Positions 15,513 through 33,430 of a DNA stretch of 64,000 bases are shown piece after piece. The DNA lies in NCBI GenBank assembly GCA_964016885.1, contig OZ024740.1, positions 310,186,001-310,250,000 on the forward strand, given 5' to 3'. Origin of the DNA: Eledone cirrhosa (taxonomy: Eukaryota). How positions within the stretch are numbered: the stretch's first letter is position 1; each line of letters starts with the position of its first letter. The notes under the pieces are model-generated. The model was given only the letters and a program-made list of their open reading frames with translations, had not been told where the DNA came from and ran no database searches. A program made the position numbers and the translations under genes.

Positions 15513-15690
15513 TAACGAAGGAAATGTGGTAAGGAACAAGATGGACCATAACGCACCAAAGTACTCAATACTTAGGGTAGTAGAGTGGGTAATAGGAACG
15601 AGTAGGACCTCGACGGCTAATTCTGGACGCAGAGTCCAGAATTAACCGTCAAAACGGCTTGAGCTCAGCCGTCGGGGTCCTACTCGTTCC
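15513..15690 (-). mobile_element. Family B ~200-bp hairpin element in (TA)n, copy 1
   Basis: Homologous to 16463-16662, 18641-18840 and 33226-33430. Hairpin around TTCTGGAC...GTCCAGAA. The main arm has a 23-bp deletion between GACGGCT direct repeats. Confidence 0.85.
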
Positions 15691-15759
15691 TATATATATA
15701 TATATATATATATATATATATATATATATATATATATATATATATATATATATATATAT

Positions 15760-16420
15760 AAAGGTTTATATATATATATATACATATATACATATACGTG
15801 TTTTGCAACGGGTCACTTTGTGGCTCAATAAAAAGTTAATAAATTAAATAATCAGAGCTATATATCATAAAACATGTCTATAGAATCACCAGATAAAATA
15901 TATACCATTCCATCTCCCAATTAGCATAATTAACCATATAAAAAAACGAATAGACCAGGCTATAAGAATAAGGCTTCTATGAAGAAATCTCCAACAAATA
16001 ACAGAAACTAGCCCTTCGCGTCGGCTGCGACGGAATATTTATCGAATATTTCGACAGTGTAATCGCCCAGATATACAGTCAATTAAACAGAATTAGGTGT
16101 AAAATAAACTAGGAAAAAATAGAAGACATTTATTAACCTCGACCAAGGTTTCGTCCGCATTTTGAGATTTCCAATAGCTTCGGAAACTCGAGCACCGGAC
16201 ACTTCAGGAGTTTGCTCAAATCTAGACAAATTTTCTAAAGTGATCGCGCCAAGAATACATTAAAAAATGGTTAAGAATCGTGACGTAGCAGCGGTCAGGT
16301 TGGAAGGAGTATGGCTAGTTGCTTACGGCTGGTGGCTTTTTGCTAGAAAGCACAGCACAATACAGCCAAATTTGTATCTCAACCTAACGGGAGATTATTA
16401 CATATAAAGGTTTACATATA
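15760..16420 (-). mobile_element. Family A ~655-nt HHR-containing unit (retrozyme / PLE pLTR-like), one circularly permuted monomer
   Basis: Reverse complement of the unit in 16842-17756. Begins and ends with AAAGGTTTA(C/T)ATATA. HHR at 16135-16213 has CTGAAGT (A9 changed). Confidence 0.85.
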
Positions 16421-16462
16421 TATATATATATATATATATATATATATATATATATATATATA

Positions 16463-16662
16463 TGGGAACCAGTAAGACCCCGACGGCTGAGCTCAAGCCG
16501 TTTCGACGGCTAATTCTGGACGCTAATCCAGAATTAGCCGTCGAAACGGCTTGAGCTCAGCCGTCGGGGTCTTACTGGTTCCTATTACCCACTCTACTAC
16601 CCTAAGTATTGAGTACTTTGGTGCGTTATGGTCCACCTGGTTCCTTACCCCATTTCCTTCGT
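16463..16662 (+). mobile_element. Family B hairpin element, copy 2
   Basis: Perfect ~57-bp inverted arms (GGAACCAGTAAG...TCTGGA / TCCAGA...CTTACTGGTTCC), then a unique tail ending CCTTCGT-(TA)n. Confidence 0.9.
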
Positions 16663-16719
16663 TATATATATATATATATATATATATATATATATATATA
16701 TATATATATATATATATAC

Positions 16720-17756
16720 ATATATACATATACGTGTTTTGCAACGGGTCACTTTGTGGCTCAATGAAAAGTTAATAAATTAAATAATCAGAGCTATATA
16801 TCATAAAACATGTCTATAGAATCACCAGATTTTCTCCTTGTTTATTTTCTCCTAGTTTAATTTACACCTAATTCTGTTTAATTGACTGTATATCTGGGCG
16901 ATTACGCTGTCGAAATATTCGATAAATATTCCGTCGCAGCCGACGCGAAGGGCTAGTTTCGGTTATTTGTTGGAGATTTCTTCATAGAAGCCTTATTCTT
17001 ATAGCCTGGTCTATTCGATTTTTTATATGGTAAATTATGCTAATTGGGAGAGCAAATCGTATATATTTTATCTGGTGATTCTATAGACATGTTTTATGAT
17101 ATATTGCTCTGATTATTTAATTTATTAACTTTTCATTGAGCCACAAAGTGACCCGTTGCAAAACACGTATATGTATATATGTATATATATATATATATAT
17201 GTAAACCTTTATATGTAATAATCTCCCGTTAGGTTGAGATACAAATTTGGCTGTATTGTGCTGTGCTTTCTAGCAAAAAGCCACCAGCCGTAACCAACTA
17301 GCCACACTCCTTCCAACCTGACCGCTGCTACGTCACGATTCTTAGCCATTTTTTAATGTATTCTTGGCGCGATCACTTTGGAAAATTTATTGTCTAGATT
17401 TGAGAAAACTCCTGAAGAGTCCGGTGCTCGAGTTTCCGAAGCTATTGAAAATCTCAAAATGCGGACGAAACCATGGTCGAGGTAAATAAATGTCTTCTAT
17501 TTTCTCCTAGTTTATTTTACACCTAATTCTGTGTAATTGACTGTATATCTGGGCGATTACGCTGTCGAAATATTCGATAAATATTCCGTCGCAGCCGATG
17601 CGAAGGGCTAGTTTCTGCTATTTGTTGGAGATTTCTTCATAGAAGCCTTATTCTTATAGCCTGGTCTATTCGATTTTTTATATGGTTTATTATGCTAATT
17701 GGGAGAGGAAATGATATATATTTTATCTGGTGATTCTATAGACATGTTTTATGATA
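16720..17756 (+). mobile_element. Family A element: ~1.4 tandem units of ~656 nt plus an inverted 5' segment (16720-16830)
   Basis: TATTTTCTCCTAG recurs at 16842 and 17498. 16728-16830 is the reverse complement of ~17070-17172. Flanked by (TA)n on both sides. Confidence 0.9.
17406..17484 (+). ncRNA. Type-I hammerhead ribozyme, canonical core
   Basis: aaaCTC-CTGAAGA-GTCCG...CGGAC-GAAA-CCATGG-TC-GAGgt, followed by AATAAA. Palindromic stem III, GUC triplet. Confidence 0.85.
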
Positions 17757-18156
17757 TATATATATATATATATATATATATATATATATATATATATATA
17801 TATATATATATATATATATATATATATATATATATATTAGTTTGATTGACATGATAGGAGGCCGGACTGGTGAAGTTACCTTAAAGCTTTATTGTTGTAA
17901 TAACATATACATGTGTTTCAATGGCCAGGTTAAGTAAAATTTTGGCGCACTATTAGTTCCGTATTGCATTATTAGTTACTCAATAAAAGAATTACGACTG
18001 ACAAAAAAAAACCCAAAGAAAATATAAGCAGAGAAAATAGCGAAGATTTTGAAAATATTTGATTCAGAGTTGGCCTACTGAGTATGTATTATCGCTGACA
18101 TGTCCCATCACGGATATATATATATATATGTAAATATGTACATATATATATATATC

Positions 18157-30739: not shown

Positions 30740-30929
30740 TAATTGTTTCTACATTAGGCACAAGGCCAGCAATTACCCAGTGCATTACTGCTACTTTATT
30801 TTATCGACCCCGTAAGGATGAAAGGCAAAGTAAACAATCGGCGGGATTTGAACTCAGATCGTAAAGGGACGTAACTATGCTGGAAAGCAAGGCGTCCGAC
30901 CCTCTACCGATACTGCCAATCCACCGCCA
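30740..30929 (-). mobile_element. tRNA-derived SINE
   Basis: Reverse complement of the family consensus, flanked by (TAA)n-like sequence. Confidence 0.85.
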
Positions 30930-30959
30930 GTAATAATAATAATGATCATAATATACATG

Positions 30960-32030
30960 CGATCAAGACAGGACCAAAGCAGACCCGAAGATGAGTACTA
31001 TAAAATGCTGAAGGTCATCCTGAAGTCAAAACTGAATGCAGGGAACATCATTTCAGCATTAAACTCCAGATCCATGATTGTTGTGATGTATAGTGCTGGA
31101 ATAGTGTCGCGGACGAAAAAAGAAAGGGAAAATACTAACCTTTGTTCATATGGCTCAACGGAAAAGGTGACTGTTATAGGTGATACCTACCGCGGAAGAG
31201 TTGAGGGAGAGATCTTATCTCACTAGAGGATTGCTTTGACATAGAATTAACGAATTTAAGTCATCATATAAAGGACAGCAAAGAAGCATTACTTAAAGAA
31301 GTAAAAGGTGTAGAAATGCTCGGCGAATGTAAAGCGAAGAAAGACTTAGTTGCTGATAAAACTAAATGGTACACAAAATGAATAAGTCATAGAAAGTTCT
31401 ATGTGAAAGCTGAAGTGCTTTGAGGAGAGAAATGTTAGGGCTGGATGAAAAAGATTGTATATACAAAGAGACAGAAGGATGTTTAATCGCAGAGACAATC
31501 TCTAAGGTCAAGATGTATCAGAAAACTTACTGAGGAATTTGCATCAGATCAGTGTCGAATATGTAGTGCCAAAAAACAGTTATTTATATTTTACCGAATG
31601 TACAGGATTAGCACAAAATAGTTATAAATTGTGGAGAGAAGATGAAACGCCTCGGATTATCTATTGGAAACTTTGTGAGATGTTTGTCTTTAATTGTTAT
31701 GAGAAGTTGTACAATTATTAAGTTAAAAGGGTGACGGAAAATTAAATGGTTATATTGTTGTGACATTTTCGCATAGAAACGGTATATTCATTGAACACTG
31801 TAGACTAGATATTTATCTATTTACCAAGGGTGAATGAAAGGGGTAGATTAGACATGTTCTTTGTCCATTTAGCACCAGAAGAGAGGAGAAGGAGAAAGAA
31901 AAATCAAGTATGTGTAATTCATTGCTTTATGAATTCTTGCTGATTTGGAATTTCAGGTAGGTACATACGTGTGATTAATTATCATTGGATCTGGGGGCTC
32001 ATTGTCAAGCAGTTTTTAAAGAGTGTTAGA
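30960..32030 (+). mobile_element. Decayed R4/Dong-like LINE (post-RT and RLE-endonuclease region)
   Basis: EYYKMLKVILKSKLNAGNIISALNSR..MYSAGIV, then CRIC, IIYWKLC and RLDI-like remnants across broken frames. A similar 3' fragment lies at ~30270-30650. Confidence 0.6.
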
Positions 32031-32733
32031 AACGATAGAGACGAAAGATGAATTTAGTATTATACAAAAGGTGGACACCAGGCATCTTGAGATAGGTGTT
32101 AAATAACTGAGCTTGAGATTCATTTAAAATCCAGTTTATACATTTATCTGTGTGATTGTAAAATATTAATAATGAATTATGCCTTACTAGAGAGAATAGA
32201 GCACACAGACTCACACACACACATACCCCCCACCCACACACGGACACAGACACACACCAACAAAAGAAAATATTAGTACAGAATGCTATAGATGCATTAG
32301 AATAATACTGAATATACTGAACATTTAAAAAATAAGATATAATACATTAATATTTTAGGTGTCTCAGTAGTTGCGTGTAATTATAACACTCCAGAGTAGA
32401 CACTGAAGTAAGTATCGAAATTAGATTGAAAATCAAGAAAATATAGTGACTGAGCAATTTAACATAGAGAGATTATATTTCCAATAATTTTATAGATTCA
32501 GGAATTTTATGCAACTGACAACATATTGTAAAATAATAAATTTAGATTTGCAAATATACCTAGGGACGTTAAATGAACAATGCTACAAAATAAAAATATA
32601 ACCAGAAAACGCGGAGGAATTAAATCAGTTTTCTCTCTTCAAACAATCTGAATATGTAGGCTTCAAATCTGAAGAAAGAAAGATTGCGAATTATGATACA
32701 GAATCAAATACTAACCATCAGAAATGTATGTGA

Positions 32734-32912
32734 TAATTGTTTCTACTTTTGGCACAAGGGCAGCAATTTTCCCAGTGTATTACTGGTACGTTATTTTATC
32801 AACCCCGTAAGGATGAAAGGCAAAGTTAACATTGGAGGGATTTGAACTCAGACCATAAAGGGCCGTAACTCTGTGCTACACAGCATGGCGTCTGACCCTA
32901 TACTATTACTAC
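32734..32912 (-). mobile_element. tRNA-derived SINE
   Basis: TTTTATCAACCCCGTAAGGATGAAAGGCAAAGTTAAC...GGATTTGAACTCAG. Confidence 0.85.
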
Positions 32913-33225
32913 CAAAAGTATGTAATAATGCAGAATAGATTAGCTGAAGATTGTGATCAGGGCGGGAGAGACAAATTAATAGTCGTCTCCCGTTAACCAG
33001 CTACAGATGAGAGGGGGATGCAGCAAAAATAATGACAAGGGTTTGGCTTACATACACTGGAAATTATGCTAGCTAAGCAATAGACCAACATAGTTCGGTG
33101 ACATAAACCAACATTACATTAAACCTGAGAAAATAACAAAACTATGTATATGTCTATATAAGTCTATATATATATATATATATATATATATATATATATA
33201 TATATATATATATATATATATATAT

Positions 33226-33430
33226 AGGAACAAGTATGACCCCGACGGCAGAGCTCAAGCCGTTTCGACGGCTAATTCTGGACTAATTCTGGAGTCCAGA
33301 ATTAGCCGTCGAAACGGCCTGAGCTCTGCCCTCGGAGTCATACTTGTTCCTATTACCCACTCTACTACCTTAAGTATTGAGTACTTTGGTGCGTTATGGT
33401 CCATCTGGTTCCTTACCACATTTCCTTCGT
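33226..33430 (+). mobile_element. Family B hairpin element, copy 3, next to the 3' end of PLE-1
   Basis: Same arms, apex and CCTTCGT-(TA)n end as 16463-16662. Confidence 0.9.

Follow-up and report, generated by a model that had tools for sequence, protein, structure and literature searches.

A 64,000-nucleotide (nt) stretch of the Eledone cirrhosa genome (GCA_964016885.1, contig OZ024740.1, positions 310,186,001 to 310,250,000 of the forward strand; hereafter the window) carries four copies of a short element, each lying within (TA)n and folding to a long hairpin, and raises the question of how such hairpins are made. A first-pass annotation had placed the four ~200-bp copies correctly, and had attributed them to a programmed fold-back in which the complementary DNA (cDNA) self-primes at a defined stop of the reverse transcriptase (RT). 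From these copies and from loci elsewhere in the same genome (L-numbers), we conclude that the hairpins are, judged by motifs, short insertions of a Hydra-type Penelope-like element (PLE), and that they probably arise when one RNA is copied into two cDNAs that are then joined head to head where the RNA ends, the putative RNA 5′ ends lying at +1 or +42 of the element. Element type and architecture are already in print and are not new; the present addition consists of counts that separate the models, and of a one-base-sharp class of copies at the predicted cut of a hammerhead ribozyme.

Positions within the element are counted in the sense of its coding parent, +1 being the A that follows TT(T/C) in TT(T/C)AGTCC. 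Each copy consists of a tail-bearing arm of at most 140 nt and a tail-less arm of at most ~60 nt, arranged head to head. The parts in the window are as follows.

15488 to 15514: left (TA)n target of copy A, with the right flank at 15691-15796.
15513 to 15628, minus strand: copy A, tail-bearing arm, element +140 to +2, which has lost 23 nt between two CGACGGCT repeats.
15629 to 15632: copy A, junction insert GCAG.
15633 to 15690, plus strand: copy A, tail-less arm, element +1 to +58, GAGTAGG subfamily.
16416 to 16463: left (TA)n target of copy B, with the right flank at 16663-16732.
16465 to 16521, minus strand: copy B, tail-less arm, element +58 to +2, CAGTAAG subfamily, with an extra G at 16464.
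16522 to 16528: copy B, junction insert of 7 nt.
16529 to 16664, plus strand: copy B, tail-bearing arm, element +5 to +140.
18554 to 18640: left (TA)n target of copy C, with the right flank, (TC)n(TA)n, at 18838-19007.
18639 to 18840: copy C, of an older diverged subfamily, tail-bearing arm followed by tail-less arm.
33143 to 33226: left (TA)n target of copy D, with the right flank at 33431-33468.
33227 to 33286, minus strand: copy D, tail-less arm, element +58 to -2, AAGTATG subfamily.
33287 to 33292: copy D, junction insert of the templated-insertion type, duplicating a short piece of the arm.
33293 to 33432, plus strand: copy D, tail-bearing arm, element +1 to +140.
51403 to 51478: decayed remnant of a fifth copy, kin to copy C and absent from the first-pass annotation.

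The inner arm ends of the young copies A, B and D lie at +2/+1, +5/+2 and +1/-2, respectively; those of copy C are poorly placed because the references held no parent of its own subfamily. The motifs quoted in the first-pass annotation were all found in place, except that the arm at 16.5k ends in GTTCCC before the TA run and that GAGTCAGG/CCTGATTC contains one mismatch. The two arms of a copy are identical only in copy B (no difference); they differ at 3 positions in copy D, at 8 in copy C, and at 2 in copy A in addition to the 23-nt deletion in one arm.

The family is very abundant, as a 31-mer of the tail matches the 3.0-Gb genome exactly at 24,666 places (reversed control, 0), and some copies extend beyond the apex into a longer parent sequence that has the same ends as the short copies. 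At L064 (6279-8636) the parent contains an open reading frame (ORF) of 786 codons, in which YRDDG and VIY...YIG were read by eye. Pfam and PDB sequence searches with this ORF itself returned nothing; its homologues number 2058, and the top hit carries PF01541. The single ORF with RT and C-terminal GIY-YIG endonuclease is the organization of endonuclease-containing (EN+) PLEs, and other marks of this group were also found: a pseudo-long terminal repeat (pseudo-LTR) with partial tandems and an inverted truncated copy (L064 map, arrays), a tail on one side only (one tail-bearing and one tail-less arm in 24 of 30 loci), and a pseudo-LTR that is predicted to fold as a three-way hammerhead. The tail runs on into the 5′ untranslated region (5′ UTR) at 342 places, some of which form arrays with a spacing of ~3.54 kb. 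One such array, at L161-L164, comprises at least four full-length units of ~3.54 kb each, 98 % like L064, and is a candidate source locus.

Within the EN+ PLEs, the Hydra clade is described by Craig et al. 2021 (PMC8557442) as having DKT, a CxCX5C linker, no CCHH, CxxC and CxH motifs, a hammerhead in the pseudo-LTR and insertion into (TA)n. The L064 ORF has DKT (SDKTG) in place of DKG, the linker CNCPDRSIC, and CNLC and CKH near the C terminus; CCHH is absent, with one Cys between VIY and YIG, and the element inserts into (TA)n. It differs from the clade, as characterized in the same article, in having RWR rather than RWK in the N-terminal region, a tandem unit of ~3.54 kb where the clade is "generally <3 kb" (a loose trait there), a U3-A8 ribozyme core, and very many short stubs. 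The hairpins are thus assigned to short insertions of a Hydra-type PLE, a placement made by motifs. Neptune, also considered for the parent, was dropped, as the motifs fit Hydra. Non-LTR retrozymes were rejected as well, because the short copies have no CUGA-side ribozyme half and the parent codes for protein; so was a miniature inverted-repeat transposable element or foldback DNA transposon, in view of 83 distinct junctions among 90 loci, asymmetric ends, and no inherited terminal inverted repeats with a constant interior. Since the short copies carry neither the TATA-like box upstream nor the 5′ ribozyme half, most of them are probably dead ends.

To count junctions without selecting on the arms, we sampled by the tail only. 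The first 100 tail matches by position, with neighbours found via the tail alone, gave 125 copies, 90 of them two-armed. A duplicate view of the two-tailed locus L045 was dropped, the inner end of L085 was set by hand past an internal deletion, and long partner arms are counted among the 35 "one-armed" copies because the parser looks 340 nt ahead. L001-L030 were excluded from all counts, the search with the copy D arm having enriched them for copy D bases and junction. A separate set comprised 30 loci chosen by the tail-less end. Apex read-through, the +42 class and subfamily shares were counted by hand from listed rows.

Is the hairpin inherited as a unit? Junctions were distinct in 83 of the 90 loci, and in 24 of 25 within the youngest subfamily; 39 carried inserts, several of them duplicating arm sequence, 30 showed microhomology, and 21 were blunt. 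The variation of apex bases between copies is thereby borne out, together with the proposal that the hairpin is re-made at each insertion. A master element already holding the hairpin would be expected to leave identical arms and apex by subfamily. A few junctions do recur, one of them in 4 of the 90 loci, yet these four are spread over four subfamilies. Homogenization by gene conversion after insertion was also checked and not seen: for each subfamily, the two arms of a locus are as divergent as arms from different loci (0.38 vs 0.40 %, 3.6 vs 3.7 %, and 1.1 vs 1.05 %), and in the 53 loci with matching common haplotypes only 1 rare change was common to both arms whereas 46 were not. For the bulk of the copies, junction diversity refutes both the master element and conversion, which we consider extremely improbable.

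These counts also change the meaning of the bases that agree between arms. They had been taken as private to each copy, and fresh synthesis had been deduced from them; of the 90 loci, however, 29 carry GAGTAGG, 30 carry CAGTAAG and 8 carry the AAGTAT type, so they are subfamily markers and that argument fails. Both arms belonged to the same subfamily haplotype in 58 of 69 scorable loci, compared with a mean of 12 and a maximum of 21 after shuffling, and to different common haplotypes in 3 of 56. The arms were identical at birth, coming from one source lineage, and drifted apart later, with no sign of conversion. At L113 (minus, 8130) and L069 (minus, 4885), the arms differ at several subfamily-diagnostic sites, as if from two RNAs.

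We then consider how the arms are made. Inner ends are concentrated at +1 and, as a sharp peak, at +42. The fixed apex was confirmed, in that 63 tail-bearing and 67 tail-less arms of the 90 loci end between -5 and +9, and only one locus has an arm past -9. The outer ends are fixed as well: one arm starts at +138/140 with the tail, and the other at +58/60 without it, the latter at +58 in 76 of 90 loci. Both outer ends lie at TA microhomologies, so that this part of the first-pass annotation holds, in contrast to the self-primed route put behind it. When loci were picked by the tail-less end, 24 of 30 were paired with a tail-bearing arm and none with a second tail-less arm, 4 ran on into the long parent, and 2 were lone stubs. 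Because the tail-less arms pair with tail-bearing arms or enter the parent, +58 is a start site in its own right.

In a programmed fold-back, the cDNA would stop, self-prime, copy itself and exit at a TA microhomology, much as proposed in PMC3846280. Several features agree with it: in 53 of 90 loci the two arms both stop close to the apex, microhomology is present at 30 of 90 junctions, several inserts are duplicates of arm sequence, and the arms share a subfamily. Self-priming and priming of one cDNA on the other yield the same sequence. A fold-back copy, however, cannot exceed its template, and the tail-less arm was longer by at least 12 nt in 17 of the 90 loci (the tail-bearing arm in 8), which argues against fold-back although later lopsided deletion could account for some of the 17. 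Moreover, 100 loci are perfect palindromes with CCCC joined to GGGG and zero loop, leaving no primer stem for self-priming. The +58 end also starts long arms that copy no short partner, and a fixed exit at +58, 80 nt before the cDNA template end, is left unexplained by fold-back. Internal deletions in one arm (copy A, L085, L043) point the same way, weakly, as they are possibly later events. Fold-back as a general route is thus largely refuted, and we regard it as unlikely. Where both ends lie near the apex (53 loci), the two routes are indistinguishable locus by locus, and fold-back may apply to individual symmetric copies, because both cDNAs carry the same sequence.

A second alternative has a single cDNA ligated to the 5′ end of the RNA from which it was copied, the RNA up to +58 becoming the second arm. 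This would yield blunt palindromes and second arms exceeding the first, both of which exist. It would also require kilobases of RNA to integrate at L064, it does not account for the 8 of 90 loci with the longer tail-bearing arm, and RT extends both target strands in vitro (PMC11167929); we consider it very improbable.

The reading that we prefer, and hold to be probable, is that of two cDNAs from one RNA. Both target strands would be cut, and two cDNAs would be primed, one per target end, at the two fixed start sites of the element; they would run to the 5′ end of the same RNA and be end-joined by the host. RNA from the pseudo-LTR promoter, its 5′ end lying near +1, would account for the common ~200-bp hairpin, and hammerhead-cut RNA, its 5′ end lying at +42, for mini-hairpins. 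Long arms and full-length arrays would come from RNA that is tandem, circular or template-jumped. Long arms occur in pairs at L064, L086, L090, L098 and L128. At L153/L154, two repeats of -3 to +253 stand between the tail-bearing and tail-less arms, as if the template had been jumped repeatedly or were a small RNA circle. In three unrelated loci (L158, L169 and L177) a segment ends at the same +231, a possible third start or RNA end. L007 was rejected as evidence for an arm starting inside the ORF, as that ORF belongs to another PLE family; a tail-bearing arm ending at +1 is there (1640-2500) joined directly to the RT-endonuclease region of that different family.

Why, then, do the inner ends stop near +1? 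A defined RT stop had been proposed; 37 arms among the first 100 of 14,321 matches read through the apex, which is therefore no intrinsic RT block. In 60 of 61 read-through copies the +1 base falls within TTAGTC/TCAGT, an AT-rich TATA-like octamer lying at -31 or -29. An Inr-like motif at the apex with a TATA-like box ~30 nt upstream fits the spacing of an initiator and a TATA box, and the main apex would be an RNA 5′ end, probably a transcription start. In other PLEs the promoter lies within the pseudo-LTR (PMC2377424, PMC3846280). Among 26 distinct loci bearing the 5′ UTR, 4 end at -3 to +11, one of them with the two repeats of -3 to +253; cDNAs with 5′ UTR or ORF that stop there are L152, L153, L156 and L158. 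T runs longer than the TTT of the parent were found at the apex in several rows and point to A-tailed cDNA ends. At L084, L090 and L048 the apex itself carries 10-25 consecutive A (or T), against three T in the parent. A G at -1 occurs in 18 of 63 junction rows, 8 of which are explicable by the partner arm, and is only suggestive of cap copying. Contig depth in run X1 rises ~13-fold at +1 and drops after +140; we did not use it as support for the start site, since contigs cannot show RNA ends and the run may be the assembly's own sample.

The main apex was also considered as the ribozyme cut. A ribozyme at the apex of longer parents had been anticipated, and a hammerhead fold was indeed predicted in the parent pseudo-LTR (core UUGAGAA, GAAA and GUC), but its predicted cut, after +41, lies 41 nt from the main apex, which is thereby rejected as the cut site; +1 lies in loop II and not at a stem foot. 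A U3-A8 core has been described as a variant among PLE hammerheads (PMC4209133). The window itself gave no match to Rfam at the gathering threshold and carries half hammerhead motifs only.

The second apex, +42, is directly 3′ of GUC. The CAGTAAG subfamily includes 153 loci in which the two arms both end no more than a few bases from the predicted cut. Among the first 50 listed of these, both arms end exactly at +42 in 32, one arm does in 15, and neither in 3; of the 32 symmetric loci, 16 are blunt and 16 have 1-3 nt between the arms, a single A or T in 9. No symmetric blunt join at +41, +43, +44 or +45 was found in the first 50 listed loci. By subfamily, the first 50 blunt loci comprise 29 of CCAGTAAG, 15 of CAAGTAAG, 4 of CGAGTAGG, 1 of CGAGTAAG and 1 of AAAGTATG, where the background per 100 listed arms is 43, 16, 21 (CGAGTAGG with TGAGTAGG), 0 and 18, respectively. 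The ribozyme core is intact in the two enriched groups (8 of 8 and 4 of 4 parents), and in GAGTAGG, where the +42 class is rare, 7 of 10 parents have a C3/A8 mismatch. The +42 copies would derive from RNA cut by the predicted hammerhead.

Several observations weigh against the account given so far. Arm length is unmatched at L104 and L033, and in three loci the arms belong to different common haplotypes. Only 4 of the 26 loci bearing the 5′ UTR end near +1 and 15 read through it, so that long copies call for a further route, by template jump or from tandem or circular RNA. The TATA-like motif is weak, because it coincides in part with hammerhead stem II and the search pattern fixed the first two bases of the octamer. 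The AAAGTATG parents have an intact core and yet are depleted of the +42 class, leaving the link to core integrity mixed. RNA-seq reads ending at the ribozyme site are reported as absent for a Poseidon element in the main text of PMC11167929. Finally, +42 is also the 3′ foot of stem III, which is compatible with RT stalling.

This last point and the mixed link to core integrity speak for a variant in which two cDNAs are made and the inner ends are RT stalls on RNA structure, at the base of stem III (+42) and in the stem II region (+1). In such a case, the 37 of 100 listed arms that pass +1 and the majority that pass +42 are difficult to explain, as are the position of +1 in a loop, the one-base sharpness of the +42 peak with non-templated A or T between the arms, and the A runs at +1 that exceed the parental TTT. 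We consider stalling quite unlikely, and favor cDNAs running to the two putative RNA 5′ ends.

Inverted 5′-truncated PLE copies with a one-sided tail are a known architecture (PMC8557442; Arkhipova et al. 2013, PMC3846280), and the present copies resemble them in the head-to-head arrangement, the tail at one end, the palindromic junctions and the partial tandems; they differ in a tail of ~80 nt instead of 30-40, and in inner ends fixed at two sites. Arkhipova et al. attribute the palindromes to self-priming, for which an antisense template is a possibility; their interpretation is not favored by the present junction counts. For Poseidon PAc in vitro, Frangieh et al. 2024 (PMC11167929) describe cleavage and extension of both target strands and two internal RNA starts that bound the tail, on an AT-rich target as here, with products that shorten with the RNA 5′ end. 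Those in vitro data and the junction data together favor two cDNAs from one RNA; joining of two cDNAs as the source of inversion is not proposed in the main text of that study. PAc differs in that no homology between primer and RNA is described there, whereas both starts here have a TA match of 2-3 nt, and in that ribozyme-cut RNA is absent from its RNA-seq, whereas a class of copies here ends at the predicted cut. The short copies also share with animal non-LTR retrozymes (10.64898/2026.07.22.740005) the small non-coding form, kinship to PLE pseudo-LTRs and a type I hammerhead sequence; unlike those described there, they are stubs with only the 3′ ribozyme half, form no tandem units, and descend directly from a coding parent. 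In the literature searched, with subscription journals mostly outside it and supplements not included, no account of PLE inversions via two cDNAs ending at RNA 5′ ends was found. In twin priming of LINE-1, two cDNAs from one RNA are made on opposite target strands and end-joined; the second priming site is internal and varies, and each cDNA covers a different part of the RNA. Here, by contrast, both starts are fixed and both cDNAs cover the same stretch, giving a palindrome.

Other inverted repeats lie near the copies in the window. Copy B sits within nested inverted repeats at 15747-17760, whose arms reach 375 nt (94-97 %) and which belong to another family carrying the hammerhead-like motif CTGAAGA...GAAAC...GTC. 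A near-perfect 171-nt hairpin with a 6-nt loop, at 18213-18560, belongs to a further family with TTGATGAG...GAAA, and its apex is upstream of the motif. At 33582-36274, inverted repeats of 500 nt (96 %) flank a PLE RT-endonuclease frame (33801-35006, minus strand) of a related family. An open frame of 514 codons at 41161-42702 starts with a PLE-type RT fragment with YRDDG.

How PLE inverted ends form, and what the hammerhead does, are called open in the texts of PMC8557442, PMC3846280 and PMC11167929. The family described here yields natural junctions by the thousand, which separate the two main models and name two exact candidate RNA 5′ ends. A broader version, which we put slightly on the doubtful side of even, is that PLEs prime doubly by obligation and that most events abort as "strong-stop" cDNA pairs at the capped RNA start, with full-length copies arising only from jumped, tandem or circular templates; the junctions would then be a genome-wide fossil record of hammerhead cleavage in vivo. 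If the +42 class is true, ribozyme-cut RNA would be a template of retrotransposition in vivo, one that went undetected in one biochemical study.

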